Source: Candidatus Entotheonellaceae bacterium
Lineage (GTDB): Bacteria > Tectomicrobia > Entotheonellia > Entotheonellales > Entotheonellaceae
DNA: 64,000 nucleotides
Direction of reading: 5' to 3'
NCBI GenBank assembly: GCA_965238075.1
Contig: OZ250173.1
Span: forward strand, 1,856,001-1,920,000
Part shown: piece after piece, positions 3,585 through 42,686 of the stretch
Numbering within the stretch: the first letter of the stretch is position 1
Layout: every line of letters begins with the position of its first letter
The notes under the pieces: model-generated
What the model saw: only the letters and a program-made list of their open reading frames with translations
What the model was told of the DNA's origin: nothing
Database searches by the model: none
Position numbers and translations under genes: made by a program

Positions 3585-3619
3585 GCTCAGAGTCATAACG
3601 TGCCGCCTTGGGATGGTTA

Positions 3620-3648
3620 TTGACAAAATGTCTCTGTCGGAATATACA
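3620..3648 (+). promoter_or_regulatory. putative sigma70 promoter of dnaA-minCDE
   Basis: TTGACA-N17-TATACA. Confidence 0.5.
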
Positions 3649-3700
3649 GGCGTGTTTCGTACCTGCACGGGAAGGAAGGCGACTGTATAGGGGTATCACG

Positions 3701-7020: not shown

Positions 7021-7051
7021 TTGACACATGCCAATTTGAGCAGTATGCTCA
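7021..7051 (+). promoter_or_regulatory. lexA promoter with overlapping palindromic operator
   Basis: TTGACA(7021)-N17-TATGCT(7044). A perfect inverted repeat TGAGCA-gta-TGCTCA (7037-7051) covers the -10. Confidence 0.7.
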
Positions 7052-7151
7052 TTTGTGCACTATCTGCCTGATTGGCAGGTATGTCTCTGCAGCATACGGG
7101 GAAAAGGAACCTCCCCAATTCCTCATGGCAATGTCAACATCGGGGCGGATT

Positions 7152-7778
7152 ATGAGACCAAAGCTCACCGCGAGACAGCAGGAAATGCTCGATTACATCG
7201 AGCGCGAAACCAGTGCAACCGGTGTTCCCCCCAGCATCCGACAAATCGGCGCGGCATTGGGCATCAGTTCCACAAACGGCGTCCGACTGCATCTGCAAGC
7301 ACTCCAGAAGAAAGGCTACATCCGTCGTAGCCAACGCACCTCTAGAGGCATCGTCAGCCTCAACCGCCTTTCAAATGCGGCTTCTCCATCCTGTTCGACA
7401 ACCGTGGATATCCCCATTTTGGGACGGGTAGCAGCAGGCATGCCCGTCATGGCCGCCGAAAACCACGAGGGCTCCCTAACCCTCGATGCAAACCTGATCA
7501 AGAACCAGGAATCGTTCGCCCTGAGGGTGAACGGCGACAGTATGATCAACGCCGGAATTCTCGACGGCGACATTGTGGTGGTGCGTTTACAACAAGGTGC
7601 GGACAACGGCGACATTGTGGTTGCGCTCATGGGCGAAGAGGCCACCGTCAAGCGTTTTTATCGAGAGAAGGACACCATTCGCCTGCAGCCGGAAAATCCC
7701 GCCATGGCACCCATTTACAGCACCGACGTAGACATCTGCGGCAAGGTCATTGCCCTCATACGGCCCCACGTGTTCTAA
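7152..7778 (+). CDS. lexA: SOS repressor LexA
   Basis: LTARQ..PPSIRQIG winged HTH, VAAG (Ala-Gly cleavage site), GDSM (Ser) and TVKR (Lys). Confidence 0.95.
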   Translation: MRPKLTARQQEMLDYIERETSATGVPPSIRQIGAALGISSTNGVRLHLQALQKKGYIRRSQRTSRGIVSLNRLSNAASPSCSTTVDIPILGRVAAGMPVMAAENHEGSLTLDANLIKNQESFALRVNGDSMINAGILDGDIVVVRLQQGADNGDIVVALMGEEATVKRFYREKDTIRLQPENPAMAPIYSTDVDICGKVIALIRPHVF

Positions 7779-7793
7779 CGCGAGATGCGGATC

Positions 7794-9269
7794 ATGAGCA
7801 AGAAAAAGCGTGCATACAACTGTCAGGCGTGCGGTTGGCAAGCGGCCAGGTGGCTCGGACACTGCCCGGATTGCGGCGGTTGGGACACCTTTGTCGAAAC
7901 GCTGCAGATGTCGACCCCAGCGACGCGCCAGACGCAGCCAGGGACAACCCAGTCACCGCTGCCGCTAACGGAAATCGTCCACGACGACGCGGAGCGTTTG
8001 CTGACGGGCATTGGGGAATTCGACCGCGCGCTCGGCGGAGGTATCGTACGCGGATCTCTCGTGCTCATCGGCGGCGACCCGGGCATCGGCAAGTCGACCC
8101 TGCTTTTGCAAGCCGCCCGCGGTCTGAGCCGGGCTCACAAGGGCAACAGTTCCGCGGTCCTCTACGTCTCGGGCGAAGAATCGGCCAGCCAACTCCGCAT
8201 GCACGCCGAGCGGCTCGGCTTGCAGAATCAGAACATCCACATTCTGACCGAAACTTCCGTGACGCATATCTGCGCTCAGGCTGAAGCGCTGCGACCGGAC
8301 GTTCTGATTATCGACTCCATCCAGACCGTGTTCACGGAAAATTCGACCTCGGCACCAGGCAGCGTCAATCAAGTGCGCGAGAGCACCGCCCAACTGATGA
8401 ACCTCGCCAAGACACATGACCTGCCGATTTTAATCATCGGACACGTTACCAAAGAGGGCACCATTGCCGGCCCTCGGGTCATGGAGCACATGGTGGACAC
8501 CGTGCTCTACTTCGAGGGTGAACGGCACCACGTCTACCGCGTGTTGCGGGCGGTCAAGAACCGCTTCGGCCCGACGCACGAAATTGGCGTGTTCGAAATG
8601 CAATCAGCGGGCCTCATGGAAGTGGAAAGTCCGTCGGAACTCTTTCTGGCCGAACGGCCGTCACAAGCCAGCGGTTCGGTGGTGGTGGCGAGTCTGGAGG
8701 GCACCCGCCCGCTCCTCGTCGAGCTGCAGGCCCTGGGCAGTCCGAATGTCTTCGGCAACCCGCGGCGCGTTGCCAACGGCGTGGATTACCAGCGGCTCCT
8801 GCTCCTGCTGGCGGTTATGGAGAAGCGCCTGGGACTTCCCCTGCAAATAAACGATGTGTACGTCAATGTCGTTGGCGGCCTCAGCTTGAACGAGCCAGCC
8901 ATCGACCTCGGAGTCGTAGTAGCGGTTGCGTCGAGCTTGCAGGACGCGGTAATCGATGCCGATCTGGTCGTCCTGGGCGAGATTGGCTTAACAGGAGAAG
9001 TACGCGCCGTGGGGCATGTGGAAGCCCGCTTGCGGGAAGCGGCCAAACTCGGCTTTCGCCGCTGCCTGATTCCGCAGGCGAATGTTCAAGCCGCTTCGAT
9101 GGTGGCTGGAATTGAAAGCATCGGGATTCGGACGGTCTCGGAGGCACTGCAAATAGTACTGCCGCCGGAGCCATCTTTCAGCAGTCTGAAGGAACGCGAT
9201 AGACACGTGGTTGCTTCGGCACCATTTCGGAGAAGGGGAGGAAAAAAACATGACGAAACATACGCCTGA
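7794..9269 (+). CDS. radA: DNA repair protein RadA/Sms
   Basis: C4 zinc finger [24 protein letters not shown] motif and a Lon-like C-terminus. The 3' end overlaps the recA start. Confidence 0.96.
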
Positions 9270-10368
9270 TCGGCAAAGCGAGAAACAACGTGTCCTGAGC
9301 CTGGCTTTCAGCCAGATCGAAAAACAGTTCGGCAAGGGTGCCATCATGCGCCTCGGCGAGAGCCAAGCCCTGGATATTCCGGTCATTCCCACCGGTTCCC
9401 TGGCCTTGGACATTGCCTTGGGGGTTGGCGGCCTGCCACGCGGCCGTATCATTGAGATCTACGGGCCCGAAGCCTCCGGCAAAACCACTCTGGCCCTGCA
9501 CGTCGTAGCGTCAGCACAGCGCAGCGGTGGCGAGGCGGCGTTCATCGACGCCGAACACGCCCTTGATCCCTCCTACGCGGGCAAAGTGGGTGTCAACACG
9601 GACAATTTACTCATCTCACAGCCCGACAGTGGTGAGCAGGCATTGGAGATTGCCGACGTCCTGGTCCGAAGTGGGGCTTTGGATGTCGTCGTTATCGACT
9701 CAGTGGCAGCCCTCGTGCCCCAAGCCGAGATCGACGGCGATATGGGCGAACCCCAGATGGGCCTGCAAGCGCGTCTGATGTCGCAGGCCATGCGCAAGCT
9801 CACCGGCATCATCCACAAAACGAAGACCTGCATGATCTTCGTCAACCAGATCCGCCAAAAGATTGGTGTTTTCTTTGGCAGCCCGGAGACGACGACCGGC
9901 GGCAATGCCCTGAAGTTCTATGCTTCCGTCCGTCTCGATATCCGCCGCATCGACTCGATCAAATCCGGCCAAGAAGTCCTCGGAAACCGTACTCGGGTCA
10001 AGATCGTCAAAAACAAGGTGGCCCCGCCCTTCCGGCAGGCCGAGTTTGACGTGCTGTACGGTACGGGAATTTGCGCGATCGGAGAATTACTTGACTTGGC
10101 GGTACAGCGTGACATGGTGCAGAAAAGCGGTTCCTGGTTCTCCTACGCCGGCGAGCGTATTGGCCAGGGGAGAGAGAACGCCAAGGGTTTCCTGGAGGAA
10201 CACGCCGATGTGGCCACGGCCATCGAAGCGCGGATACGTGCAGCCTACGACATTCCGCAGGTAGCCAGCGAAAAGCTTGCCGCTGCCGCCGAGGCCGCCA
10301 GCACCGGAGAGGATCTGTATGAGCCTGCTTCCGTGGAAGAGGACGGCGATCGACTGGAAATCAGTTGA
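9250..10368 (+). CDS. recA: recombinase RecA
   Basis: [25 protein letters not shown] and [22 protein letters not shown]. Confidence 0.98.
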
Positions 10369-10423
10369 ATGCGCCCCAGGGCGCTGACGATAGGCAATCT
10401 CGATGGGAAGGAGCAGCGCGGTC

Positions 10424-10909
10424 ATGCGCGAAATGTTTGCCGGTGAATACGCATGCAAACTGGATGACAAGGGTCGCTTTTCCGTCCCGACGTCCCTCCG
10501 GGAGCCGTTCAGTCTTTCGGAAAGTAGCGATGCGAAGCGGGCAATGCTGGTCAAATCGCAACAGGAACGATGCCTTTGGCTTCTTCCCGTACCGCACTGG
10601 CGCGCGCTGCTTGAGTTCCAGCAGGAGCGGCTGAGCGAGCGTGAAAGCCGGCTCTTCATGCACCACGTGGTGTATGACGTGGTCGAGGTTGAAATGGACC
10701 GCGCCAATCGTCTTCTGGTACCCCGCAGGCTGCGAGAGCACATTGGCGCCAATGACAACGTCGTGCTCGTCGGTATGTACGATCACCTGGAGGTGTGGGG
10801 TAGTCAGGCTTGGTCTTCTCACCTCGCCGCCTTGGAAGAGGAACATGAAACGACCCTGAGCGACGTGCTCCGCATGCCCAGTTTCAAGCCAGCCCTTTCA
10901 GGCGCGTAA
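10424..10909 (+). CDS. mraZ: MraZ-family transcriptional regulator (SpoVT/AbrB-like)
   Basis: MFAGEY..KLDDKGRFSVP and second repeat EMDRANRLLVP..LR...VVLVG..DHLEVW. Confidence 0.85.
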   Translation: MREMFAGEYACKLDDKGRFSVPTSLREPFSLSESSDAKRAMLVKSQQERCLWLLPVPHWRALLEFQQERLSERESRLFMHHVVYDVVEVEMDRANRLLVPRRLREHIGANDNVVLVGMYDHLEVWGSQAWSSHLAALEEEHETTLSDVLRMPSFKPALSGA

Positions 10910-10971
10910 CCTGGCGGAGCGCGGCGATTTGCTCCAACGATTCCAGACCCCGGGACAAAAGAAAGGCTCGC

Positions 10972-12147
10972 ATGCTTGACTTGATGGAGGTGAATCAGCA
11001 AATCACCAAGATGGCTACTGAGAGGCATCTCGTTGCCGATGACATGGCCAAACGGCTCGCCTTGGCCGTGGAACGCCTGCATCTGGAATCCGCCCGCTGG
11101 CAGGAATTCGTTGACAAACTTGCGATGAGCAAGACCTCCTGGTTGGTTGCCACCATTCACGAGCCTCTCAACCGCACCTACGACCTGCCGCCGCGCCCCG
11201 AGACGGTCACCGTCGTGGCCGCTGACGGTTCGCAAATCATGCCGAGCCATCACGAGGTGATACCGGCTTTTCTGCTCAATATCGCCACGGTCGTCCTACA
11301 CTACGGCAACGGTGGAGGAGCAGCGTTTACCAGCACGCCAAGCCTGTTTTATCGTGACGAGGACCTGTACCTGGATTACGGCGGCGAGCGCGTGCAGGTA
11401 ACCGGTGACCTGCTGGGCATGCGCCGGACGCTGATGGAATTCGGCAGCCTTATCGAACAGGCGGTCGCCGCCCGCAAGGGTGGCGATGTTGTTTGTGCGC
11501 TTAGTGACGGCAGTCTGATTCTCTGGCAGCTCGAGGGGCGACCGCCGGATTACCAGGAATCCATGCTGACGGATTATCTGGCATGTCTTGATCAGGGCAA
11601 CCATCAAGACGTTCCGATCATTGGCTACATCAGTCGGCCACGCAGCCGCGACGTTGTGAACGCCTTGCGGGTTGGGCTTTGCCCCGAAGACGCCCCGAAC
11701 TACGATCGCTGCCCGTACGAACAGGATGAGCGACCGCCGTGTGCGCAGATCGAGGGGCTGACGGATCGCCGCCTTTTCGCCAATCTCCTGAAGGCGGGTG
11801 AGCGCTCCCAGGTCTTTGGCAGCACGTCCCGAATCCTCAGCAAGTACGGGGTGCACCGCATCGGCTTTTTCTATCTTCACGTGGGGTCGGAGATTGTGCG
11901 TATCGAGTTGCCGCAATGGGTCGGCGCAAACGCCGCGCTGCTTGATCTGGTCCATGCCGTCGCCTATGATCAGGCCCAGAAAGGCATGGGCTATCCGGTT
12001 GCCTTGGCTGAGGCCCATCAGCAAGCCGTGGTGCGGGGCGCCGAACGCGATCTATTTTACGACATGGTAACCGCCGTGTTCCGGCAACGTGGCGCACCCA
12101 TGGCCGTGTCACCCAAAAACCTTCGCAAACGCAGAATGACGGTGTAG
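10972..12147 (+). CDS. nurA: NurA-family 5'-3' nuclease
   Basis: VVAADGSQ, LSDGSL, GYISRP and C-terminal GYPVALAEAHQQAVV. It lies upstream of the HAS barrel gene and herA. Confidence 0.88.
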   Translation: MLDLMEVNQQITKMATERHLVADDMAKRLALAVERLHLESARWQEFVDKLAMSKTSWLVATIHEPLNRTYDLPPRPETVTVVAADGSQIMPSHHEVIPAFLLNIATVVLHYGNGGGAAFTSTPSLFYRDEDLYLDYGGERVQVTGDLLGMRRTLMEFGSLIEQAVAARKGGDVVCALSDGSLILWQLEGRPPDYQESMLTDYLACLDQGNHQDVPIIGYISRPRSRDVVNALRVGLCPEDAPNYDRCPYEQDERPPCAQIEGLTDRRLFANLLKAGERSQVFGSTSRILSKYGVHRIGFFYLHVGSEIVRIELPQWVGANAALLDLVHAVAYDQAQKGMGYPVALAEAHQQAVVRGAERDLFYDMVTAVFRQRGAPMAVSPKNLRKRRMTV

Positions 12148-12149
12148 CC

Positions 12150-12725
12150 ATGCAAGACGGCGAAATTGGTGAGGTGATCGGCAGCAGCAATACCGAATTC
12201 ATTGCCGAAAGCGTTTTGCTGCATAATTCCCCGCCCTTTGGCACCTTCATCAAGGTGCAGTCGCGCGAGACGATCTACGCTGCCGTGTTCAACTCCTATA
12301 CCCACAGCCTGGAGCCCAACCGCCTGGCCATTGCCTACCACCGCTCGGAGCAGGAACTGCGCGACGAGCAGCCGCAGATTTTCGAGCTCCTGAAGACAAA
12401 ATTCGAGGCGGTCATCATCGGGTACGAGTCCGAAGGCACTGTCCGCTACCATCTACCGCCGCAACCGCCCCGCATCCACAGTTTCGTCTATCCGTGTCGC
12501 CCCTTGGAAGTTCGCCGCCTGACCTCGCAATTCCACTTCCTGCGTTCGCTGATGAGCGTCGAGAAAACCCCGCGCGACGAGCTGATCGCCGCCGCTATCC
12601 GCAGCGCCTACGCGGAACACAAGGGCGAGCGGTCGTTCCTGGTCAAGGTCGGCAAGGAATTGATCAAAATCATCGGCGACGATTACGAGTTGCTTTCCTC
12701 TATCTTACGCAGAATCCAGGATTGA
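12150..12725 (+). CDS. HAS-barrel domain protein (HerA/NurA partner)
   Basis: IGEVIGSSNTEFIAE..PPFGTFIKV..YHLPPQPPRIH. It sits between nurA and herA. Confidence 0.75.
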   Translation: MQDGEIGEVIGSSNTEFIAESVLLHNSPPFGTFIKVQSRETIYAAVFNSYTHSLEPNRLAIAYHRSEQELRDEQPQIFELLKTKFEAVIIGYESEGTVRYHLPPQPPRIHSFVYPCRPLEVRRLTSQFHFLRSLMSVEKTPRDELIAAAIRSAYAEHKGERSFLVKVGKELIKIIGDDYELLSSILRRIQD

Positions 12726-12747
12726 CCACTGGGTTAAAGGCCAACAA

Positions 12748-14406
12748 ATGGATAACGTGCAGAAGGGCAGACGGCGCGTCGGCGTGATCGTCAACGGCTC
12801 CCTGATTAACGGTTTGGAGATGAAGCTGGACGAATGGTACTCCGTGGAGGACATTCGCGCCGGCCGGTTCGTGGTCATCGAAGGCGAGAAGAGCTGCTTC
12901 TTTTGCATGGTCACCGACGTGCGTCTCGACACCACCAACCCCCAGGTGCTGGCCGACCCGCCCGACGAGGCGGAAGAGCTCATGCGCCAGGTGCTGCACG
13001 GCACGACGACCTACGGCACCGTCTGCCTGCGCCCCCTCCTGATGACGGAGAAGGACGACGTTGTCGGCGACAGACCGGGGGAACCCCACCTCGTCAAAAC
13101 CATCCCCATTCACTTTTCCGTAGTCGGCGAGGCCGAAGAGGAAGACGTCAACCACATCTTTGGCCACGAGGGCAACCCCCGCTATTTTCACATCGGCCAA
13201 CCTCTGGACATGGATACGCCGGTCTGCATCGACTTGGAAAGCTTTATCGAGCGCAGCAACGGGATTTTCGGCAAGACGGGCACCGGCAAGACCTTCCTGA
13301 CCCGCCTGATGCTGGCGGGCCTGATTCATAAAGACCGTGCAGTCAACCTCATCTTCGACATGCACAGCGAATACGGCTGGCAGGCGACGCAGGAATCCGG
13401 CAGCGGCGGGCGGCAGGGATTCGTCAAGGGCCTGAAGCAACTCTTCGGCAGCAAGGTAGCCATCTTTACCATCGATCCCGAGTCGGCCCGGCGGCGCGGC
13501 GTGCAGAGCGATTTTGTGGTCAACATCCCTTACAGCCAGATCACCGTGGAAGACATCGCCTCTCTGTCAGACGAGCTCAACCTGCACCCAACCGCGGTGG
13601 AATCGGCGTACTTGATATGGAACAAGCACGGGCGCGAGTGGCTATCCACCCTGCTAAGCCAGGAGCCTGAGCAGATCAAGGACTTTGCCGACAACGTTGG
13701 CGCACACCCGGAATCCATTTCGGCCCTCCACCGCAAGCTCAAACGCCTGGAAAAATTCGACTTTCTGCAAAAGCAGGTGCACGAGGACGCCGTCTACAAA
13801 ATCATGGAGTTCCTTGGCAAGGGCATGCACATCGTCCTGGAATTCGGCCAACAAAGCAGCTTCCTGTGCTACATGCTGGTCGCCAACATCCTGACCCGCC
13901 GCATCCACGACCTCTACGTCAGGAAAACCGAGCAATACCTCGCCACCCACCAGCCGCAGGACAAGCCGAAGCAGCTCATCATCACCATCGAAGAGGCGCA
14001 CAAGTTTCTCAACCCGGTTGCCGCCCGACAGACCATCTTCGGTACCATTGCGCGTGAAATGCGCAAGTATTTCGTCTCCCTGCTCATTGTCGATCAGCGG
14101 CCCTCCAGTATCGATGATGAAATCCTGTCGCAGGTGGGCACCCGCATCACCGCGCTGTTGAACGACGAGAAGGACATTGGCGCCGTGCTCACCGGCGTCA
14201 GCAACGCCAGTTGGCTACGCGGCGTCCTGGCAAGCCTGGATTCCAAGCAACAAGCCCTGCTCATGGGACACGCCGTGCCGATGCCGGTCGTCATCCGCAC
14301 GCGAGACTACAATCCCGCCTTTTACAGCGCGCTGGGGTACGTGGAGGGCGAGGACCTGACCCGCAAAGCCGAGTCCAACATCGCGGATCTGTTCGGCGAC
14401 CGGTAG
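12748..14406 (+). CDS. herA: HerA helicase/translocase (DUF87 ATPase)
   Basis: N-terminal HAS barrel, Walker A GKTGTGKT, FDMHSEY, Walker B IEEAH, AREMRK and DQRP. Confidence 0.9.
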   Translation: MDNVQKGRRRVGVIVNGSLINGLEMKLDEWYSVEDIRAGRFVVIEGEKSCFFCMVTDVRLDTTNPQVLADPPDEAEELMRQVLHGTTTYGTVCLRPLLMTEKDDVVGDRPGEPHLVKTIPIHFSVVGEAEEEDVNHIFGHEGNPRYFHIGQPLDMDTPVCIDLESFIERSNGIFGKTGTGKTFLTRLMLAGLIHKDRAVNLIFDMHSEYGWQATQESGSGGRQGFVKGLKQLFGSKVAIFTIDPESARRRGVQSDFVVNIPYSQITVEDIASLSDELNLHPTAVESAYLIWNKHGREWLSTLLSQEPEQIKDFADNVGAHPESISALHRKLKRLEKFDFLQKQVHEDAVYKIMEFLGKGMHIVLEFGQQSSFLCYMLVANILTRRIHDLYVRKTEQYLATHQPQDKPKQLIITIEEAHKFLNPVAARQTIFGTIAREMRKYFVSLLIVDQRPSSIDDEILSQVGTRITALLNDEKDIGAVLTGVSNASWLRGVLASLDSKQQALLMGHAVPMPVVIRTRDYNPAFYSALGYVEGEDLTRKAESNIADLFGDR

Positions 14407-14435
14407 CGCCGTACCGGAGAGGATGGCATTTCGAT

Positions 14436-15668
14436 ATGCTCCACCTGCTGCACCTCGCCGACATCCATTTTGGCATGGAAAACCACGGCCGCCTCGACCC
14501 CGCCAGCGGGCTGAACCGCCGCCTGCTCGACTTCACCCGCTCGGTGCACACGGCGATTGATTACGCCCTCGACCACGACGTCCATCTCGCCATTTTCGCC
14601 GGCGATATCTACAAACACCGCGACCCCGACCCCTCCTGGCAACGCGCTTTCGCCGGATGCGTGCGACGCCTGGCCGAGGCCGAGATTCCCGTGGTCATCC
14701 TGGTCGGCAATCACGACCAGCCGAACACCTTCGGCAAAGCCCACGCCGTGGAAATCTTCGATACCCTTGGACTTCCCCGCGTGACGGTCATTAACAAGCC
14801 GAAACTGCACACGATCGCGACAGCCGCCGGCCCCGTGCAGGTCGCGGGCTTTCCCTATATGACGCGCAGTTTCATGCTGTCGCGCGAACAGTACAAAGCG
14901 CTCTCGATCGCCGACGCTCACCGGTTGATGGTCAAGCAGGCCGAAGAAATCCTGCGTTCCCTGGCGGCGCAACTCGACCCCTCGCTGCCGGCTGTGCTCA
15001 CCCTCCACGGCAGCGTGTCCAACGCCATCCTCAGCTCCGAACAAAGCATCATGATGATAGGGCACGATCCGATCATACCGCTCAGTATCCTGACCAATCC
15101 CGCCTGGGATTACGTCGCCCTGGGGCATATCCATCGCCATCAGGACTTACACCACGGGGCGCAGCCGCCGGTGGTGTATGCGGGCAGCATCGAGCGCATC
15201 GATTTCGGCGAGGAAAAGGAAGACAAAGGGTTCGTGTGGGCGCAGGTCGAAAAGGGGCATACCACGTTCACCTTCATTCCCGTGCCGGCGCGGCGCTTCG
15301 TCACCCTGCGCCTGGATGCTCGAAACGGCGACCCGGTTCAGTTACTGGAGGAAGGGCTGGCCACACACGATATCGACGACGCCATCGTGCGGGTTATCGT
15401 CACCATACCTGCCGAACACACCGCTCCCTTCGACGAGCGCCGGATGCGCGAGCGCCTTCGGTCCGCCTATCTCGTCGCCGGCATTGTCAGGGATGAGGTG
15501 CGCGGCCCGGCGCGCACGCGCGATTCCGGTCTGACCGAAACGCTGACACCGCTGCAGGCCATGGAGCGCTACCTGCAAAGCCGCCCGGAATACGCCGACC
15601 GCCAGCAGGCTCTGCTGGAACGCACGCAACGGTTGCTCCAGGAAATGCAGGAGGAACTCCTGGCATGA
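14436..15668 (+). CDS. sbcD: SbcD/Mre11 nuclease
   Basis: LHLADIHFG, FAGDIY, VGNHD, LTLHG, ALGHIH and YAGS phosphoesterase motifs. RBS GGAGAGG. Confidence 0.92.
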   Translation: MLHLLHLADIHFGMENHGRLDPASGLNRRLLDFTRSVHTAIDYALDHDVHLAIFAGDIYKHRDPDPSWQRAFAGCVRRLAEAEIPVVILVGNHDQPNTFGKAHAVEIFDTLGLPRVTVINKPKLHTIATAAGPVQVAGFPYMTRSFMLSREQYKALSIADAHRLMVKQAEEILRSLAAQLDPSLPAVLTLHGSVSNAILSSEQSIMMIGHDPIIPLSILTNPAWDYVALGHIHRHQDLHHGAQPPVVYAGSIERIDFGEEKEDKGFVWAQVEKGHTTFTFIPVPARRFVTLRLDARNGDPVQLLEEGLATHDIDDAIVRVIVTIPAEHTAPFDERRMRERLRSAYLVAGIVRDEVRGPARTRDSGLTETLTPLQAMERYLQSRPEYADRQQALLERTQRLLQEMQEELLA

Positions 15669-18600
15669 TTCCGCTCAGCCTGCGACTGCGGAATTTCATG
15701 AGCTATGGCGAGCATGTGCCACCCCTCAATTTCACCCCCATCACTACTGCTTGCCTCACGGGTGACAACGGACACGGCAAATCGGCCCTGCTGGACGCCA
15801 TCACCTGGGCGCTCTGGGGCCAGACGCGCGCCAAAAACCTCGACGACATCGTGCGCCTCGGCCAGGAGGAATGCGAGGTCGAGTTCGTCTTCGACCTCGA
15901 GGGCGACCGCTACCGCGTGCTGCGCAAGCGCAGTCTGCGGACCCGCAGCGGCCTCTCAGCTCTCGAACTGCACGGCTTCGACCCGGCGGCACAAAGCTAC
16001 CGCGCCCTGAGCGGCAACTCCATCCGCGAGACCGAAGCCAAAATCGCGCAAATCCTGCACATGAACTACGACACGTTCGTCAACTCGGTGTTCATCCTGC
16101 AAGGCCGGGCCGATGAATTCACCACCCGCCGTCCCGGCGAGCGCAAACGTATCCTGTCGGAAATACTGGGCTTGTCCGTTTTCGATGAGCTCCAAACACG
16201 CGCCCGAATTCATCACGGCAGCCTGGACCAGGAAGCCAAGACGATCGCCGAACATCTGCACGAGTTGCAACAACAGGTCGCGCGCAAAGCCGACCTTGCC
16301 GCCGCGGTGGATACCCACCGGAAAACACTAACCAGCTTGCAGGCCGAACTACACGAAGCCCAGAAAAACCTGACGCACCTGCAGCAACGGCAAAACGCTC
16401 TGGAATTGCAACAGCAGCGGCTCCAGGACGTGTCCCGACGCTTGCAGCAACTCCGTCAGGAACAGGGCGATCTGGCTCCGCAATTGGCCCTTCACCGTCA
16501 GCATCTCGCCGATTATGAAACCCTGCTGAAACAGGAACAAGCCATCACCACCGCCTATCAAGCATTGCAACAACTCCGCGACCAGGAACGTGTCTACAGC
16601 CAACAGGCGGACGAATACGCGGCGCTAAACCAGAAGCGCACAACCCTGCAACATGCCGTCGCATCGGCCCGCCAGCGCCTCGACATCCAACTGCAGAACG
16701 CCGAGCAGCGGGGCACGGAGATCGACGCGAAACGCCGGGATTGCGAGGTCATCGTGCTAGAGGAGCCGTGCATCGTGCAGGCATACGAGGCATTGCAAGC
16801 GGCCCGCCGACGCGATGGTGAAATGGCCCAGACACTGCAACAACGATACGTCCGGGAGCAGGAGAAGGGCCAGATTGAATTGAGCATCCAGCAGAAACGG
16901 CACGCACTGGAGCTGGAACAACGCTCCCTCCTGGACAGGCAGAAGGAATACCAGCGGAAGGAAGCCACGCTGCCGACCTGGCAGGAACAGACGGAGCAAT
17001 TGCGCCAGCAACTGGGCAACGTCGAACAGCAGGCACTGCAACTTGAGGGAGTGCGTGCAGCCGGCGCGACGCTGACATTTCAACTCGACCACGCCCTGCC
17101 GCAGAAGCACGATGCGTTGCGTACGGAAATCAGGGACTACGAGGGCAAACGTCTGCTGATTGAGAGTGCCGAGGCGCACTGCCCTTTGTGCGAAAACGCC
17201 CTGACCGATCAGGAACGGCACCGCGTGATGCGGAAGTTGAAGCTGGAAACCGAGCAGCGCGAGCAGCGCATCCGCGACATGCAGGACGAACGTAATCAGT
17301 TACAGGCGCGGCAGCAGGAACTGCATCTGACGTACAAGCAGTTAGAAGAGCAAATCAAGCAGGGCAGGACGCTCACACAACAGCTTGCCGCCGCGCAGGC
17401 AGGCCTCGAAGAGGCCACACGCGCCCGCGACCACTGCGCCGCGGTCTTGCAGGCGTTGCAAGAGATTGACGCTCAACTCGCGGCGGGCGCATACGCCCGC
17501 GAGGACTTGGCACATCTGGAACGGCTGAACATCGAGCTCGAACAACTGGCCTATGACCCCGAAGCATACGAGGCGTTGCGCGAAAAGCTGGCCCGACTCG
17601 CCGAAGCCGAGACCCGGCACCTGCAGTTGCAGCAGGCAAAGGCCGACCTGCTAACCTTAAACACCCAGCGCCAGGAGATAACCCAACAACAGGCCGTGCT
17701 GCGAGAGACCCTGACCTCAAACCGGTTCGCCCTCAGCGAGCAGCAGGAACTACAGGAAATAGCCGAGCGCCTCCAGCGCCTGGATTATCAGCCCGAACAG
17801 CACAACCTTCTGCGCCGCAAGCTGCAAGAACAGCAGGGTGTCGAACGCCCGTTCGCGCAGCTCGAAACCGCCCGCCAACACCTGAGCGAAACGCACGCCG
17901 CCCTCCAAGACCTCGAAGCTCGTCAGGCGCGTACCGATATAGAAATCGGGGCACGGGAAGAAGACCGCCAACGATTCGAGCACGAGGTGCAATCCCTCGA
18001 CGCGGTGCGCGCTGACGCCGACACCGTCGAGGACCTTGTGCGCGCGCTGCGGGAACGGGAAGGAGAGACCCGCCTCGCCTTGGGTCGTAGCCAGTCGCAA
18101 TATGAGGTGTGTTTACAGCAGGAGGCCGAGCTACAGGCACAACAACAGCAGCGGCAACGCGTGGTATCCGAACGGCAGCTCTACGACGACCTCACCCGCA
18201 TGTTCGGGAAGAACGGCATCCAAGCCATCATGATCGAGAACGCCATACCCGAGTTGGAAGAAGAGGCCAACCGCATCCTTTCCCGGGTCAGCGATAACGC
18301 CATGCACGTGACGCTCGAAACGCAGCGCGACACCCGCACTGGTGGCGTTGCCGAAACGCTCGACATCAAGATCAGCGACGACCTGGGCACCCGCAACTAC
18401 GAACTGTTCTCCGGCGGCGAGGCGTTTCGCATCAATTTCGCCCTGCGTATCGCACTGTCCCGCATGCTGGCCCGGCGCGCCGGCGCCCGCCTCCGCACCC
18501 TGGTGATCGACGAGGGCTTTGGCACCCAGGACACCCAGGGCCTCGAACGTTTGGTCGAGGTGATCAAGGCCATCCAGGACGACTTCGCCAAGATCATCAT

Positions 18601-18694
18601 CATTACCCATCTACGCGAATTGAAGAACGCCTTCGAGACCCATATCGAGGTCACCAAGCACCCCGTGCTCGGCTCTTCCTTCGAGGTGGTTTGA
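15665..18694 (+). CDS. sbcC: SbcC/Rad50 SMC-like ATPase
   Basis: LRNFMSY, Walker A GDNGHGKS, long coiled coil with zinc hook CPLC, signature FSGGE and Walker B VIDEGFG. ATGA overlap with sbcD. Confidence 0.93.
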   Translation: MIPLSLRLRNFMSYGEHVPPLNFTPITTACLTGDNGHGKSALLDAITWALWGQTRAKNLDDIVRLGQEECEVEFVFDLEGDRYRVLRKRSLRTRSGLSALELHGFDPAAQSYRALSGNSIRETEAKIAQILHMNYDTFVNSVFILQGRADEFTTRRPGERKRILSEILGLSVFDELQTRARIHHGSLDQEAKTIAEHLHELQQQVARKADLAAAVDTHRKTLTSLQAELHEAQKNLTHLQQRQNALELQQQRLQDVSRRLQQLRQEQGDLAPQLALHRQHLADYETLLKQEQAITTAYQALQQLRDQERVYSQQADEYAALNQKRTTLQHAVASARQRLDIQLQNAEQRGTEIDAKRRDCEVIVLEEPCIVQAYEALQAARRRDGEMAQTLQQRYVREQEKGQIELSIQQKRHALELEQRSLLDRQKEYQRKEATLPTWQEQTEQLRQQLGNVEQQALQLEGVRAAGATLTFQLDHALPQKHDALRTEIRDYEGKRLLIESAEAHCPLCENALTDQERHRVMRKLKLETEQREQRIRDMQDERNQLQARQQELHLTYKQLEEQIKQGRTLTQQLAAAQAGLEEATRARDHCAAVLQALQEIDAQLAAGAYAREDLAHLERLNIELEQLAYDPEAYEALREKLARLAEAETRHLQLQQAKADLLTLNTQRQEITQQQAVLRETLTSNRFALSEQQELQEIAERLQRLDYQPEQHNLLRRKLQEQQGVERPFAQLETARQHLSETHAALQDLEARQARTDIEIGAREEDRQRFEHEVQSLDAVRADADTVEDLVRALREREGETRLALGRSQSQYEVCLQQEAELQAQQQQRQRVVSERQLYDDLTRMFGKNGIQAIMIENAIPELEEEANRILSRVSDNAMHVTLETQRDTRTGGVAETLDIKISDDLGTRNYELFSGGEAFRINFALRIALSRMLARRAGARLRTLVIDEGFGTQDTQGLERLVEVIKAIQDDFAKIIIITHLRELKNAFETHIEVTKHPVLGSSFEVV

Positions 18695-18756
18695 GCAACT
18701 ACGCTGCGGGCTTTTTTCAACTCCGCTGAATCTCTTGAATGGGAACTCGATTCTCT

Positions 18757-19512
18757 ATGGTTAGCGGCAAAGTCTATCTCGTCGGCGCGGGACCGGGCGC
18801 CGCAGACCTGCTGACCGTGCGCGCCGTCAACGTGCTGGCGCGAGCCGAGATTGTCTTTCACGACGCACTGATCAACAAGGAAACGCTGTCGCATTGCGCC
18901 GCCGGGTGCGTCCTGGTTCCGGTCGGCACGCGTGGTGGTTTTCGTGTTCCCAACCGGCAAGAGCGCATCCACGAGCTTCTGGCCGAGGCAGCCGGGCGGT
19001 ACGGCACGATCGTCCGTCTCAAGGGCGGTGACCCGTGCGTTTTCGGCCGCGGCGGCGAAGAAATGGAGTTTCTCACCGCGTCCGGCATACCGTGGGAGGT
19101 CGTCCCTGGCATCAGCGCCGGCGTTGGTGGACTCTCGCTGCTCGGCTTTCCCGTTACGCATCGGGACGTGTCGTCATCGGTGACGCTGCTGACCGGCAGC
19201 CGCACGACCACCGGCATGTTTGACGAACTACCGCTGCCGGCACCTCTCACGCCCTCCCAAACCCTGGTGTTCTACATGTCGTTCCAGCATGTCGGCAACA
19301 TTGCGCACACGCTGATGACGCGCGGCATGCCGCCGGAGACGCCGGCTCTGTGCGTTTCCTGGCTGTCGTATCCGCATCAGGCGCTGCTCACAGCGCCGCT
19401 GTCGCAGATCGGCGATGCGGTAGCTGCCTCCGAGTTGACACCGCCGTCCCTGCTGGTCGTCGGCGACGTTGTGGCGTTCTGGCAACGCCTGCAAGCTGGC
19501 AGAGACGTGTGA
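18757..19512 (+). CDS. cobA: uroporphyrinogen-III C-methyltransferase
   Basis: KVYLVGAGPG..LLTVRA, VRLKGGDPCVFGRGGEE, VVPGISA and PVTHR. Confidence 0.92.
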   Translation: MVSGKVYLVGAGPGAADLLTVRAVNVLARAEIVFHDALINKETLSHCAAGCVLVPVGTRGGFRVPNRQERIHELLAEAAGRYGTIVRLKGGDPCVFGRGGEEMEFLTASGIPWEVVPGISAGVGGLSLLGFPVTHRDVSSSVTLLTGSRTTTGMFDELPLPAPLTPSQTLVFYMSFQHVGNIAHTLMTRGMPPETPALCVSWLSYPHQALLTAPLSQIGDAVAASELTPPSLLVVGDVVAFWQRLQAGRDV

Positions 19513-19520
19513 ACCATTTC

Positions 19521-21197
19521 ATGGATCAGCAATACGTCAGCGCCATCTTTGACGAAATCGCCAATCTGCTGGAACTGCGGCGCGACGATCCGTTTCGTAT
19601 CCGCGCCTATCGACGGGCCGCGCAAGCGATCCTGTCCGTCGACGAGAGCTTGCAGGCAATCGCTCGGCGCGGTGGGCTTGAAGACATTTCGGGCATTGGC
19701 AAGACACTCGCCAGCGAAATCGACGAACTCCTCGACACCGGCCGACTGCGTTATCACGACCACCTGAAAAGTACGGTGCCCGAGGGCCTGCCGGGCCTGC
19801 TGCGCCTCCCGAGTCTGACGATCCAGCAGGCACGCACCTTGTGGCAGCAGCATCGGATCACCTCTCTGAAGCAACTTGCCCAGGCTTACCGAGCCGACCA
19901 GACGCCCCTGGACGCAGCCACGCTTGCCGTCTTGGGTAGGGACCTTGCAGCCTGGGAGCGGGGCGAGAATCGCATGTTGCTCGGCACCGCCTGCCCGCGC
20001 GCCGAAGCCCTGACGCATAACCTCGCAAAGCTCTCGACCGTTCAACAGATTGAAATTGCTGGTAGTATCCGCCGCGGCGCGATCCTGGTAGGCGATATCA
20101 ATATCGTCATGGGCTCCGAGGACCCGGAGGGCCTGATTCGATATTGCCGTCGTCAGCCGGAAGTAACCCAGATTCTTGACAGCGGAGCGACCTCAACGGC
20201 GATGCGCATCTCCGAGGGTCTGCGCGTCTCGCTCGTCGCCGTGCCGCCGACGGAATTTGGCGGCGCCCTGCTGCTGGGGACCGGTTCCGACGCCCACTTG
20301 GCCGCGCTGCAGCAGTGGGCTCAACTTCACGGCTGGTGCCTCAACGAGCGCGCCGCGGCAGAAGAAGCGGACCTGTACGAACTGCTGGGATTGCCGTTTA
20401 TCGCTCCTGAATTGCGCGAGGGCCGCGGGGAGATTGAGGCGGCGGAAGCGGACAATCTGCCGCAACTCGTGTCGCAGCAAGATGTGCTTGGCGATTTTCG
20501 CGTCGGCAGCCATTGGGGAAACGGTGCCAACGGCCTGGACCAGATTGCCCAGGCCGCTCGGAAGATGGGCTACCAATACGTGGGCATCTGCGATGCCGCC
20601 TACTCAGCCGCCACAGGCCGCGGGCTCACCCCTGGCGAACTCGAGCAGCAGATCGCTTCGATCGAGTTGATGAACGCCGCCTTGCCGGACGATTTTCGCC
20701 TGCTGGCCGGCGTGGAAGTCGACATTTCACCCGACGGCGGCCTCCAGACCCCTGCGGAACTGCTACAGACGTGCGATGTGGTGGTCGCCGCCGCACGCAC
20801 TGGCCTCAAAGAACCGCGCCGTCAACTGACCCGCCGTTTGTGCAAGGCCATGGAGAATCCACTCGTCCACATTCTGGCACCCCCGCCCGGACGCCCTCCG
20901 GGTGACCCGGAGATGCCGCCCATCGACACGGAAGCGATCCTGGAAACCGCGGCTGCCACCAATACTTGTCTGGAAATCAATAGCCACCCCCTACGCCCTG
21001 GTCTGCCGGATGTCCACGTACGCACAGCCAGGGACCGCGGCGTGATGCTCGCCCTTGGCTCCGGCGCGCAGCACATACGCGAGATGCAATCCATGGCCCT
21101 CGGCGTGACGACGGCGCGCCGCGGCTGGGCCGAACCGCGGCATCTGCTCAATACCCGGCCACTCCAGGCAGTTCTGCAGTTTCTGAAAAAGGCGTGA
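19521..21197 (+). CDS. polX: PolX-PHP family protein with degenerate catalytic residues
   Basis: DPFRIRAYRRAA, HhH ISGIGK, AGSIRR, PFIAPELREG and a PHP fold (GVEVDI, EINS, GVTTARRGW). The catalytic Asp/His residues are substituted. Confidence 0.85.
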   Translation: MDQQYVSAIFDEIANLLELRRDDPFRIRAYRRAAQAILSVDESLQAIARRGGLEDISGIGKTLASEIDELLDTGRLRYHDHLKSTVPEGLPGLLRLPSLTIQQARTLWQQHRITSLKQLAQAYRADQTPLDAATLAVLGRDLAAWERGENRMLLGTACPRAEALTHNLAKLSTVQQIEIAGSIRRGAILVGDINIVMGSEDPEGLIRYCRRQPEVTQILDSGATSTAMRISEGLRVSLVAVPPTEFGGALLLGTGSDAHLAALQQWAQLHGWCLNERAAAEEADLYELLGLPFIAPELREGRGEIEAAEADNLPQLVSQQDVLGDFRVGSHWGNGANGLDQIAQAARKMGYQYVGICDAAYSAATGRGLTPGELEQQIASIELMNAALPDDFRLLAGVEVDISPDGGLQTPAELLQTCDVVVAAARTGLKEPRRQLTRRLCKAMENPLVHILAPPPGRPPGDPEMPPIDTEAILETAAATNTCLEINSHPLRPGLPDVHVRTARDRGVMLALGSGAQHIREMQSMALGVTTARRGWAEPRHLLNTRPLQAVLQFLKKA

Positions 21198-21223: not shown

Positions 21224-21820
21224 TCAGATGTCGCGCCGGCCTTCCAGCGAGCGGCTCAGCGTGATTTCGTCGGCGTATTCAAGATGACCACCGACCGGCA
21301 GACCATGCGCGAGGCGTGTGAGGCGGATGCCGTGGGGTTTCACGAGCCGGGCGAGATAGAGGACCGTGGCTTCGCCTTCTATGTTGGGATTGGTCGCACA
21401 AATGATTTCGTGGATGCCGCCCCGTTCCACCCGGGCCAGCAAGGCATCAATCGTCAGTTGATCGGGTCCGATTCCGTCGAGCGGCGAAAGCGCGCCCATC
21501 AGGACGTGGTACAGCCCATTGTACACCCCGGTGCGCTCGATGAGAAACACATCGCTCGGGTCTTCCACCACGCAAATGAGACCGCCGTCGCGCGACGGGT
21601 CGGTGCACAGTGCGCAGGGATCGGCCTCCGTAATGCCGCGGCAGCGCGAACAAAAGATGATTTTCTCTTTCACTTCCACAATCGCCTGAGCGAGGCGCTG
21701 AGCGCGCTCCTGTGGGGTTCGCAGGATATAAAAGGCAAGGCGCTGGGCGGTTTTCTCACCGATGCCGGGCAGGCGGCAAAGCTCTTCCATCAGGGTGGAG
21801 AGCGTACGGGGTCGGAACAT
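21224..21820 (-). CDS. recR: recombination protein RecR
   Basis: LPGIGEKTAQRLAF, C4 zinc finger, VVED TOPRIM, ATNPNIEGEAT and LEYADE. Confidence 0.96.
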   Translation of the reverse strand: MFRPRTLSTLMEELCRLPGIGEKTAQRLAFYILRTPQERAQRLAQAIVEVKEKIIFCSRCRGITEADPCALCTDPSRDGGLICVVEDPSDVFLIERTGVYNGLYHVLMGALSPLDGIGPDQLTIDALLARVERGGIHEIICATNPNIEGEATVLYLARLVKPHGIRLTRLAHGLPVGGHLEYADEITLSRSLEGRRDI

Positions 21821-21839
21821 AGCGATTCCCTGTAGCAGC

Positions 21840-22157
21840 TCAGAAGAGACCGGGGATTTTCATTCCACCAGTCAGCTTGCTCATCTCGTCGGAAATCATC
21901 TCCTGAGACTTGCGCAGGGCTTCGTTAACACCAGCCAGAACAAGGTCTTCAAGCATTTCGATGTCGTCCGGGTCAACGACCTGCGGCTCAATCTTGAGGC
22001 GCAGGAGTTCATTTTTGCCGTTGACCGTGACCGAAACCATGCCACCGCCGACCGACGCCTCGACGGTCCGCTGCGCGAGTTCTTCTTGCATCTTGACCAT
22101 CTTCTGCTGCATCTGCTGGGCCTGCTTGAACAGATTGCCCATACCACCTTTCATCAT
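21840..22157 (-). CDS. ybaB: YbaB/EbfC nucleoid-associated protein
   Basis: [28 protein letters not shown]. It lies between dnaX and recR, with RBS GAGGAG. Confidence 0.93.
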
Positions 22158-22164
22158 ATACTCC

Positions 22165-23808
22165 TCATCGAGGTACGGCTTGAAAGATCTCCACGACAGC
22201 TTCCTTGAAAGCAAGTTTGTTCTTCTGCATGTCCTCTAAGGTGGACTCGCCGGAGTTGGTTGCGGCGGCGCCGGGGGTCGGAGCGATGTCCGGCTCTGGC
22301 TCTAGTAAAGGTTCGATAGCCACATGAAAGTCCGGTCCGAAAAGCTCCTGGGCGATTTCCCGGATCGTGGCGAGGTTTTCAGGCTCGCTTAATGTCGACA
22401 GATGGAACGCGTCGCGTTCGCGTATGCCAACCGTCAACTTGTTGTCCTGACTGGAAACGACGGTGCCCTGCTCCAGACAACCCGCCAACGAGGGGCGTTT
22501 CCGTGCAACCCGCTCCTGCAACATGGGCCAGGGGTCACCTTCGGATGAAGGCGGCGCCTCGGACGCTGTAGCAACAGTTGATTCCGACGCTGACGATTCA
22601 TGCACCGCGCTCGCAGCCGGCTCGGGGGCGGCTGCAGGGTAGGAGGTCGGCGGCGGCGACGGAGCTTGATCGTCGCCATACTGTTGCAGGTAGTCCAGCA
22701 CCGATTGCAGCGGCTGCACCCGGCCAATGCAAGCCATTCGCACCAGTGCCATTTCGAGAATCAGCATCGGATTGCTAGCATACCGCAGCGACCCTTCCGC
22801 CGTTGACAGCGTGTGAAACTGCCCGTAGATCTCCTCCGGGCTAACCGCGTCCGCAATACGGCGCAACGCCGTCATGTCTGACTCCGACAACGGGATTAAA
22901 CTCTCCGGATGCGGCACCGTCTTGAGCACAATGAGATGGCGCAGCGCCTCCAGCAGCGCCTTCATGATACTGCCGGCCTCATAACCCTCCATCTGTAGCT
23001 GGCCGACGGTATGTAAAGCCATTTCAGCGTCCTGTCTGAACAAGGCGCCCAGACAAGCCACCAACGGTTCGCTGCCCACGTGCCCGAGGAGCTGCCGCAC
23101 GTCGTCATCCTGAATCTCCGTGCCACAGAAGGCAATAACCTGATCGAGTAGACTCTGGCTGTCACGCATGCTGCCCTCAGCGGCTCGCGCAATATGCGCC
23201 AAGCTGGTCGGCGATATGGTGATGCCCTCGCTTTGCGTGATGGAGGCCAGTTGTGCGCAGATACCCGTGAGGGAGACGCGCTTGAACTCGAACCGCTGGC
23301 AGCGGGAGACAATGGTGAGGGGGATTTTTTCCAACTCGGTGGTGGCGAAGACGAACACGACGTGGGGCGGCGGCTCCTCAAGCGTCTTGAGCAGCGCGTT
23401 AAACGCCTCCTTGGTCAACATGTGGACTTCATCAATGATGTAAATCTTGTAGCGCCCGCCGGACGGCAGGTAGCGCAACTGCTCACGCAGGTCACGTATC
23501 TCGTCGATGCCGCGGTTGGAAGCGCCGTCGATTTCAATGATGTCCAGGTAGGAACCTTGCGTGATTTCTTGGCAGGATCGGCAGGTGTTGCACGGTTGAA
23601 CGGTGGGGCCTTGCTCACAATTGAGGGCTTTGGCCAGCAGGCGGGCCATGGTGGTTTTGCCGACGCCGCGGGTACCCGAGAACAGGTAGGCGTGGGCGAC
23701 GCGGTTGAGTTGGATGGCGTTTTTCAGGGTTCGGGTGACGTGTTGCTGCTCGACGACGTCGTCGAATGTTTGGGGGCGCCATCTCCGTGCGGTGACTTGG
23801 TACCCCAT
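22165..23808 (-). CDS. dnaX: DNA polymerase III subunit gamma/tau
   Basis: [42 protein letters not shown] and GSMRD. Confidence 0.96.
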
Positions 23809-31558: not shown

Positions 31559-31587
31559 TGCTTTATCCTGTTCGCGAACAAGGACGA

Positions 31588-32699: not shown

Positions 32700-32880
32700 C
32701 TCCTGCCTCTTAAAATTAAATAGTAGTAAACTTAAATCCGATGAATATGTGAAGAAAGGTCCCAACCCTTTCTTGATACGGCGTTTTCCTTGTGAGTAAA
32801 TTTTCCCCTGTGGATAAATTCTTATCCACACACCCGATGCGCCTGCGCTTGTGGAAAACTGATATTCGTGATTTCCACAT
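32700..32880. other. oriC: replication origin oriC (DnaA boxes, DnaA-trios, AT-rich unwinding element)
   Basis: Perfect boxes at 32809-32817 (TGTGGATAA), 32822-32830 (TTATCCACA) and 32850-32858 (TGTGGAAAA). One-mismatch boxes at 32748-32756, 32791-32799 and 32871-32879. TAGTAGTAA trios at 32721-32729 sit next to an AT run, directly upstream of dnaN. Confidence 0.85.
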
Positions 32881-33880: not shown

Positions 33881-34013
33881 GATGTCAGGGAGGATTGTGG
33901 TGACTGAAGGGAAGGTAGCATCAGGACAGTAGAAATTCACATTTTGCACAGGCCGAATACTAGCAAATTTATCGTTCTCTGACAAAGTCTTATTGCATCT
34001 TCTCAGGCGTTTC

Positions 34014-34043
34014 TTGACACCCACTTAGCGTGGGTGATACCCT
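34014..34043 (+). promoter_or_regulatory. putative rpmH promoter
   Basis: TTGACA-N18-TACCCT with an extended -10 TG. Confidence 0.45.
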
Positions 34044-42660: not shown

Positions 42661-42686
42661 TCAATCCCGAACTCATCGCGAAATAA
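41662..42686 (+). pseudogene. IS3-family transposase OrfB, frameshifted
   Basis: The N-part (ACQALGVSRATFYR..CSERTMYRIL) and C-part (RRNQREHP..rve core) are in different frames. Confidence 0.85.

Follow-up and report, generated by a model that had tools for sequence, protein, structure and literature searches.

In the archaeal end-resection operon of Sulfolobus and Pyrococcus, herA, mre11 and rad50 lie next to one another and nurA comes last. At the protein level, archaeal Mre11 and Rad50 act at the DNA end, and a HerA hexamer feeds a NurA dimer (PMC3326311; PMC5448004). Bacterial NurA-HerA pairs have been described from few bacteria only, for example Deinococcus-Thermus, which are without RecBCD (PMC9960219); in Thermus the nurA stop codon overlaps the hepA start, so that no HAS-barrel gene lies between the two, and the neighbours are metabolic genes, and in Oceanithermus profundus a bacterial nurA-hepA-sbcD-sbcC arrangement has been reported (PMC5448004, the latter in section 3.1). 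Here we analysed 64,000 nucleotides from Candidatus Entotheonellaceae bacterium (contig OZ250173.1, positions 1,856,001 to 1,920,000 of the forward strand; this whole stretch is called the window below), in which eleven co-oriented genes, lexA, radA, recA, an MraZ paralogue, nurA, a stand-alone HAS-barrel gene, herA, sbcD, sbcC, cobA and polX, follow one another on the + strand between positions 7152 and 21197. On balance, we are inclined to read this cluster as a recombinational-repair string that is mostly one LexA-autoregulated transcription unit, expressed from a promoter ahead of lexA, in which a nurA/HAS/herA core is joined to other modules.

As in the archaeal operon, members of the same four families are adjacent and co-oriented and would be expected to divide the labour in the same way. 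The proteins are of bacterial type, however, nurA lies upstream of herA, an extra HAS-barrel gene is inserted between these two, and the whole set sits in a longer string behind lexA-radA-recA. Deinococcus radiodurans and Thermus thermophilus also pair a bacterial NurA with HerA, and Oceanithermus shares sbcD and sbcC directly after herA; the linkage of bacterial nurA-herA to sbcD-sbcC, part of what a sequence-only reading of this DNA had pointed out, was already in print (PMC5448004). What distinguishes the present locus from the Deinococcus-Thermus systems is a 576-nt gene between nurA and herA, a HerA with no sequence match to the D. radiodurans protein (E≤0.001), a NurA that matches no solved NurA, and the linkage to lexA, recA and polX, none of which is reported for Thermus or Oceanithermus in the available text of PMC5448004. 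The literature searched yielded nothing that links nurA and herA to lexA, recA or polX, nor anything on Entotheonella repair genes.

Gene identities were assigned with Pfam and NCBIfam, and start codons and ribosome-binding sites were read from the sequence. The profile matches bear out the eleven identities and the + strand orientation proposed in the sequence-only reading and, together with the motifs, the presence of a complete NurA/HerA/SbcD (Mre11)/SbcC (Rad50) set (Table 1). NurA covers positions 2-254 of the 254 in PF09376 and carries two DG motifs (VAADG and LSDG) and AEAH, the catalytic motifs as defined in the available text of PMC13748450; it gave no PDB sequence match at E≤0.1. HerA has a HAS barrel of its own at residues 11-74 (PF09378, 9.9e-7), and its Walker A (GKTGTGKT) and Walker B (EEAHKF) motifs are invariant in the HerA alignment. 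Nine PDB sequences matched it at E≤0.001, including 8wiv (1e-19), a bacterial SIR2-associated HerA, and 4d2i (5e-16), the Sulfolobus HerA; D. radiodurans HerA (7wrw/7wrx) was absent from these nine. The zinc hook of SbcC was recognized by PF04423 Rad50_zn_hook (27.4 vs 24.3). The label 'archaeal-style' given to this set in the sequence-only reading therefore suits its gene content and not its orthology, since the archaeal equivalog models were all missed (HerA_Thermprot 79.3 vs 800, Mre11_Pyroc 70.4 vs 600 and Rad50_Sulf 147.4 vs 1000 bits) and the best models for SbcD and SbcC were the bacterial sbcd and sbcc, SbcD passing the cut-off and SbcC falling below it. By these comparisons, HerA and NurA appear to belong to a bacterial clade distinct from the Deinococcus-Thermus pair.

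The operon-like packing noticed earlier was likewise recovered, every junction being an overlap or a gap of about 62-64 nt at most. The stop/start overlaps at radA/recA, sbcD/sbcC and cobA/polX argue for coupling within blocks, and the recA ATG at 9250 is preceded by a ribosome-binding site, GGGGAGG. Co-orientation by itself is unremarkable because dnaA and minCDE upstream are also on the + strand. Two close relatives whose genomes were assembled independently (L001 and L002) have the same gene order, which indicates that the cluster is not an assembly artefact. Between the genes of the cluster, neither promoter-like sites nor + strand terminator-like sites were detected; the + strand promoter-like sites at 9425 and 11942 fall inside genes. 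The limits drawn earlier also held: 7021 marks the -35 hexamer of the top promoter-like site, and the cluster ends at 21197, where it converges on the - strand genes dnaX-ybaB-recR. A GC-rich palindrome, GCGCCC..GGGCGC, lies right after the recA stop codon (10369-10402); it is not kept in L001 and lacks a T run, and it could act as a weak attenuator or have no function.

LexA-regulated SOS operons include autoregulated lexA and, in some bacteria, recA or sbcDC under LexA control. As in such operons, lexA here comes first behind a promoter with palindromes at or after the -10 hexamer, and recA lies in the same string; an eleven-gene string starting from lexA and including a full end-resection set differs from them, and none such was found in the literature searched. 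Both hexamers of the promoter are invariant across the window, L001 and L002, and so are kept, in the two relatives, both candidate operator motifs (Table 1). In L001 the second palindrome reads CTGTC..GACAG, with both arms changed and the symmetry retained. The first motif, TGCTCATTTGTGCA, resembles what we take to be the Fibrobacter LexA-box consensus, a consensus that a literature look-up failed to find. The encoded LexA has a winged-helix DNA-binding domain (PF01726, 8.2e-23) and an S24 self-cleaving domain (PF00717, 9.8e-35), and it keeps the Ala-Gly cleavage site (VAAG), the serine (GDSM) and the lysine (VKRF) that are needed for RecA-stimulated self-cleavage. The region 7021-7078 together with this intact LexA plausibly represents an autoregulated lexA promoter, and SOS control of the cluster through the candidate operators is plausible as well.

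The distribution of the cluster was assessed with one genome-contig scan using the HerA alignment, from which the 80 best loci, out of at least 592 confirmed, were taken with flanks of up to 10 kb. The window proteins were compared with these loci by tblastn and by iterated local profiles over all open reading frames (ORFs); the profiles (nurA, HAS, sbcD, sbcC, recA, lexA, polX, mraZ and cobA) added nothing beyond plain tblastn. HerA homologues at 80-86% identity were labelled Candidatus Tectimicrobiota, Tectomicrobia or Entotheonella, and these other Tectimicrobiota were not among the 80 surveyed loci. The nearest loci, L001 and L002, are Entotheonella metagenome-assembled genomes with 97% HerA identity, and they were the only 2 of the 80 to keep the whole order minCDE-lexA...polX, with proteins 84-97% identical. 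The rarity of recA/lexA linkage suspected in the sequence-only reading is thus confirmed, at 2 of 80 HerA loci, both from close relatives; its question whether the linkage would be absent in relatives had a divided answer, the linkage being kept in the two Entotheonella genomes and, beyond them, nurA/HAS/herA alone being conserved. Neither the MraZ paralogue nor cobA was found at any of the 78 loci outside L001 and L002. Apparent radA linkage at those loci (13 profile matches) was rejected, the matches being proteins of 514-940 aa that share a Lon/ChlI-like C-terminal domain; the one inspected, at L017, is a YifB/Mg-chelatase-type ATPase.

The three-gene core was found far more widely. Among the 73 loci in which over 600 nt precede herA, 31 have a homologue of the HAS-barrel gene immediately ahead of it; further copies are two partial ones at contig ends and two unlinked ones. 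Of the 80 loci, 24 have nurA: in 14 the gene ends less than 900 nt upstream of herA, in 9, mostly Dehalococcoidia, it is found 1-5.5 kb upstream, separated from herA by one to four genes, and in 1 it lies downstream. Restricting the count to loci with upstream sequence longer than 6 kb left 58, of which 22 had both HAS gene and nurA, 4 the HAS gene only, none nurA only, and 32 neither. The nurA/HAS/herA module was seen in Tectimicrobiota, Latescibacterota, Gemmatimonadota, Handelsmanbacteria and Chloroflexota, and homologues of the HAS gene occur also in Armatimonadota, Moduliflexota, Actinomycetota and Thermoanaerobacterium. We read nurA/HAS/herA as an old bacterial three-gene module, to which, in Entotheonella, sbcDC has been joined downstream, lexA-radA-recA and the MraZ paralogue upstream, and polX at the end. 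Since only this core is widespread, the cluster represents a known repair system in a form specific to its lineage, seen so far only in Entotheonella (Tectimicrobiota).

The gene sbcD follows herA in 4 of the 72 loci with more than 1.3 kb downstream, namely L001, L002 and the Chloroflexota loci L028 and L060, and sbcC follows sbcD in three of these four, L028 having a methyltransferase there. At L060 (4175-17851) the order is selA-selB-...-nurA-HAS-herA-sbcD-sbcC followed by a UvrD/PcrA-like helicase, and L028 (2541-9981) shares with it selB upstream of nurA-HAS-herA-sbcD. A HerA tree of 80 rows (the window and 79 loci, L059 being dropped for its short match), computed in quick mode with support from the Shimodaira-Hasegawa-like approximate likelihood ratio test only, largely follows phyla, and its starred branches separate the Entotheonella clade from L028 and L060; across phyla the HerA proteins are 47-66% identical. 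On this tree the herA-sbcD adjacency, as scored, needs at least three changes, but because L028 and L060 share selB upstream their adjacency may be one event, leaving at least two apparently independent juxtapositions of herA and sbcD in the surveyed loci. Repeated juxtaposition in Entotheonella, Chloroflexota and Oceanithermus argues for functional coupling.

The survey also recorded other herA neighbourhoods. In Dependentiae/Babeliales-type loci (L024, L030, L033, L036, L039, L042, L043, L049, L052, L064 and others), herA directly follows atpD-atpC; the ATP synthase beta and epsilon neighbour clusters (c3 and c4) were present in 16 and 13 loci, with no adjacent nurA or HAS gene. In Chloroflexaceae and Thermodesulfobacteriota the neighbours of herA are unrelated. 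Many of the loci L003-L013 and L071 (Latescibacterota, Gemmatimonadota and Handelsmanbacteria) have conserved genes ahead of nurA-HAS-herA, coding for a protein with STAS and histidine-kinase-like ATPase parts, a 196-aa protein without a known family and an SH3-domain protein. In L006, L007, L010 and, in Zixibacteria, L014, the region downstream of herA holds a gene for an N6/N4 DNA methylase.

The least-described element of the cluster is the 191-aa HAS-barrel protein; no paper was found that describes such a partner of NurA-HerA, and the NurA-HerA literature searched yielded no mention of its gene. Against PF09378 it scored E=0.0082 (16.7 bits vs a gathering threshold of 25.2), and this sub-threshold match called for structural confirmation. 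Homologues are numerous: 143 in the 90%-cluster database, many annotated with PF09378 and one, from Thermoanaerobacterium, named 'HAS-barrel domain-containing protein' by NCBI, and 690 clusters at 50% identity (E≤0.001; 425 with E≤1e-10), nearly all of the 150 best clusters listed being 150-275 aa long. Homologues of HerA and of the HAS protein carry consecutive locus tags (KatS3mg131_0040/_0041 and NKDENANG_02579/_02580). An AlphaFold2 model built on a 37-sequence alignment (predicted local distance difference test, pLDDT, 91.6; predicted template modelling score 0.86) shows a beta barrel at residues 7-115 followed by a helical bundle at residues 118-190. When this model was compared with the PDB by Foldseek, 63 matches were obtained at E≤0.001, and all the top ones listed were HerA chains (9x1m 2.7e-7, 4d2i 1.9e-6 and 7wrw 1.8e-4, with template modelling scores, normalized to the query, of 0.36-0.52), from archaea, Deinococcus and anti-phage systems. 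The protein is thus confidently modelled with the fold of the HerA N-terminal part; compared with the HAS-barrel domain of HerA itself (PF09378), it has the same fold but stands alone, without an ATPase domain and with a C-terminal helical bundle. By sequence it was not significantly similar to the neighbouring HerA (BLASTP E 1.2; profile-profile comparison with hhalign E 0.17), and its profile found chance-level matches only among PDB sequences.

Prediction of a HerA+HAS complex gave a median score of 0.44, the best control scoring 0.00, with at least 93% of contacts shared between runs and a partner pLDDT of at least 84. Of 157 solved complexes 116 reach the pass mark used, as do 2 of 215 mismatches; scores up to 0.60 hold only 18 of the 157 solved complexes, plus both mismatches that passed, so that the present score supports the pair weakly. 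Our reading is that the HAS protein is probably an accessory HerA subunit.

Several observations weigh against a single damage-controlled repair unit. Outside L001 and L002, recA, lexA and polX were linked to herA in 0 of 78 loci and sbcD in just 2 of the 70 that could be scored, and synteny among three genomes as close as these would be expected anyway. The association of the HAS gene with nurA comes down to three or four independent contrasts, for which a sign test gives p of about 0.5, and, since solved HerA rings have barrel-to-barrel contacts, the predicted HerA-HAS contact may reflect mere likeness. cobA, which is also found between sbcC and polX in L001 and L002 and is probably a passenger, has no evident role in repair. 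Motifs resembling the candidate operators (up to three mismatches) numbered 12 in the window, where 7.95 were expected, and 4, where 4.97 were expected, and a degenerate form gave 10 matches vs 14.7 expected in the 64 kb; beyond the candidate operator, the 64-kb window gives no sign of a LexA regulon. The terminator scan as a whole performed at chance (20 found vs 17.8 expected), so the absence of terminators weighs little. In L002 (within its positions 8004-8225) the MraZ paralogue and nurA are set apart by an additional stretch of about 160 nt that neither the window nor L001 has; the resulting gap of about 220 nt implies that tight coupling at this junction is not required. In Deinococcus and Thermus, finally, knock-outs of nurA or herA are described as having a modest effect on damage resistance, or even as improving it (PMC9960219).

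This wide gap in L002 makes the mraZ-nurA junction the likeliest site for a second promoter and, with the TTGACA that it contains, is one of the points in favour of a different arrangement, in which several independent units (for example lexA-radA-recA, the mraZ-like gene, nurA-HAS-herA-sbcDC and cobA-polX) have been compacted near the origin and only the first is controlled by LexA. This is possible though less likely. In its favour, the two widest gaps (34-64 and 62 nt) flank the MraZ paralogue, so that the boundary coincides with a gene for a transcription factor, other phyla have the nurA-HAS-herA module by itself, and both strands of the surrounding 64 kb are rich in genes for replication and repair (two dnaA genes, dnaN, recF, gyrBA and dnaX-ybaB-recR). 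The internal gaps devoid of promoter-like sites speak against it, as do the three stop/start overlaps, which argue for coupling within blocks.

A role of nurA-HAS-herA mainly in defence against foreign DNA, its position among repair genes being secondary, seems distinctly unlikely here. According to the available text of a 2026 review, bacterial NurA-HerA mainly targets viral DNA (PMC13748450), and PMC9960219 likewise leans towards a function in defence. Anti-phage HerA motors are among the nearest PDB sequences (8wiv, 9c1m and 8xau), and DNA methylase genes are among the neighbours of herA in Latescibacterota, Gemmatimonadota and Zixibacteria. However, PADLOC matched HerA only in part, at its C-terminal end, and matched none of NurA, the HAS protein and SbcD, the HerA_antiphage model NF042943 was missed (83.3 vs 800 bits), and no Sir2, DUF4297 or other effector is present at the cluster. 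The conservation of HerA across phyla and a tree that follows them are unlike typical mobile defence genes, and the module is linked to recA, sbcDC and polX here and to sbcDC and a UvrD-like helicase in L060. It is more improbable still, to a high degree, that this HerA clade is a NurA-independent housekeeping DNA translocase for which NurA and the HAS protein are optional, so that the 'complete' set would be over-read. The 32 of 58 loci with neither gene nearby and the position of herA behind atpD-atpC in reduced Dependentiae genomes would suit such a translocase, but nurA could sit elsewhere in those genomes, the survey having covered 10 kb on each side, and nurA is present in 22 of the 26 loci that have the HAS gene.

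The gene between recA and nurA codes for a protein with two PF02381 stretches, that is, two MraZ/SpoVT-AbrB repeats, which matches solved MraZ chains at 5e-12. It scores 86.8 bits with the MraZ equivalog TIGR00242, under the cut-off of 98.35, and its gene is conserved in L001 and L002 at this position and not at the head of the dcw cluster. Because of the sub-cut-off score and the location outside the dcw cluster, the protein looks like a paralogue of MraZ.

Table 1. Features of the cluster, its junctions, its promoter region and the adjoining recR gene (window coordinates; aa, amino acids)
Feature	Position	Strand	Details
Sigma-70-like promoter	7021-7049	+	TTGACA-17 nt-TATGCT, 10/12 matches; best + site in 19.5 kb scanned
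Candidate LexA operator motif 1	7046-7059	+	TGCTCATTTGTGCA; overlaps -10 hexamer; kept in L001, L002
Candidate LexA operator motif 2	7064-7078	+	Palindrome CTGCCTGATTGGCAG; downstream of -10; kept in L001, L002
lexA	7152-7778	+	208 aa; TIGR00498 216 bits vs cut-off 111
lexA-radA junction			Gap 6-15 nt
radA/sms	7794-9269	+	TIGR00416 611.7 bits, full length
radA/recA junction			20-nt overlap
recA	9250-10368	+	TIGR02012 558.8 bits
recA-mraZ junction			Gap 34-64 nt
MraZ paralogue	Start 10403, 10424 or 10433; end 10909	+	PF02381 1.9e-27
mraZ-nurA junction			Gap 62 nt
nurA	10972-12147	+	391 aa; PF09376 2e-36
nurA-HAS junction			Gap 2 nt
Stand-alone HAS-barrel gene	12150-12725	+	191 aa; HerA N-terminal-like fold (model)
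HAS-herA junction			Gap 22 nt
herA	12748-14406	+	552 aa; DUF87/HerA central domain (PF01935) 1.5e-35; own HAS barrel
herA-sbcD junction			Gap 29 nt
sbcD (Mre11-type nuclease)	14436-15668	+	TIGR00619 125.4 bits vs cut-off 77.65
sbcD/sbcC junction			4-nt overlap
sbcC (Rad50-type ATPase)	15665-18694	+	1009 aa; TIGR00618 278.8 bits (cut-off 478.5); zinc hook residues 485-534
sbcC-cobA junction			Gap 44-62 nt
cobA (uroporphyrinogen-III C-methyltransferase)	18757-19512	+	NF004790 256 bits vs cut-off 198
cobA/polX junction			4-nt overlap or 8-nt gap
polX	19521-21197	+	Pol beta-like and PHP domains; NF006375 304 bits (cut-off 426); HHH_8, Pol-beta thumb
recR	21224-21820	-	TIGR00615 256 bits; convergent, marks cluster end

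A twelfth gene after polX was considered and rejected: the + strand ORF at 21194/21284-21835 (213 aa) is an antisense shadow of recR, with no family in profile searches and a best Atlas score of 0.89, of low recognition, and its apparent conservation by tblastn in L001 and L002 (73-78%) is misleading. Another + strand ORF, 21762-22208 (148 aa), is the antisense shadow of ybaB (21840-22214, - strand).

The window is a replication-origin neighbourhood. A dnaA gene (3608-5092, +) and minCDE lie directly upstream of the cluster; the - strand carries dnaX-ybaB-recR, tadA, gyrA, gyrB, recF (30377-31681), dnaN and a second dnaA (32822-34024), beyond which follow rnpA-yidD-yidC-mnmE-mnmG-rsmG. The two dnaA genes are 28 kb apart. 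The copy at 3608-5092 is full length (TIGR00362, 526 bits); that at 32822-34024, as called, matches only profile positions 107-437 and is the first gene of a classical dnaA-dnaN-recF-gyrB-gyrA string opposite rnpA-yidC. Replication forks coming from one of these two dnaA loci would meet the repair cluster head-on. Within the 64-kb window there is no recBCD, addAB or adnAB gene, the RecB-like nuclease present being of the TM0106 type only (RecB-like/Cas4-like, 43814-45307); it adjoins IS3- and IS4-family transposase fragments (41910-42686 and 43235-43741). Further along, a DEDD (DnaQ-like) exonuclease domain protein (51749-52927, +) converges on a radical SAM protein of the spore-photoproduct-lyase family (52913-54037, -).

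If the cluster works as the known members of these protein families do, SbcCD would recognize and trim broken or blocked ends, and the HerA hexamer would push the duplex into a NurA dimer that resects the 5' strand, with the HAS-barrel protein serving as an accessory subunit of HerA during resection. RecA, with recF and recR encoded in the same window, would then be loaded on the 3' tail, RadA would drive branch migration and PolX would fill gaps, and damage-triggered cleavage of LexA would raise the expression of the whole set. A bolder joint reading, fairly unlikely to hold as a whole, would have many bacteria use a three-subunit motor of NurA, HerA and a HAS subunit that caps or bridges the HerA ring, where the archaeal and Deinococcus motors have two subunits; Entotheonella would have wired this motor into an SOS operon with RecA, RadA, SbcCD and PolX, and the MraZ paralogue would be an SOS-induced repressor of division and cell-wall genes, a checkpoint comparable to SulA or YneA that would, however, work at the level of transcription.

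The eleven-gene superoperon is so far a genus-level peculiarity, and the most original element appears to be the nurA/HAS-barrel/herA triad conserved across phyla. The surveyed HerA clade is well conserved in many phyla, which contrasts with the view of bacterial NurA-HerA as rare given in PMC9960219, as far as its available text goes. For the biochemistry of NurA-HerA the HAS protein is a candidate new subunit, and for Entotheonella the cluster is a candidate SOS-controlled alternative to resection of the RecBCD/AddAB type.

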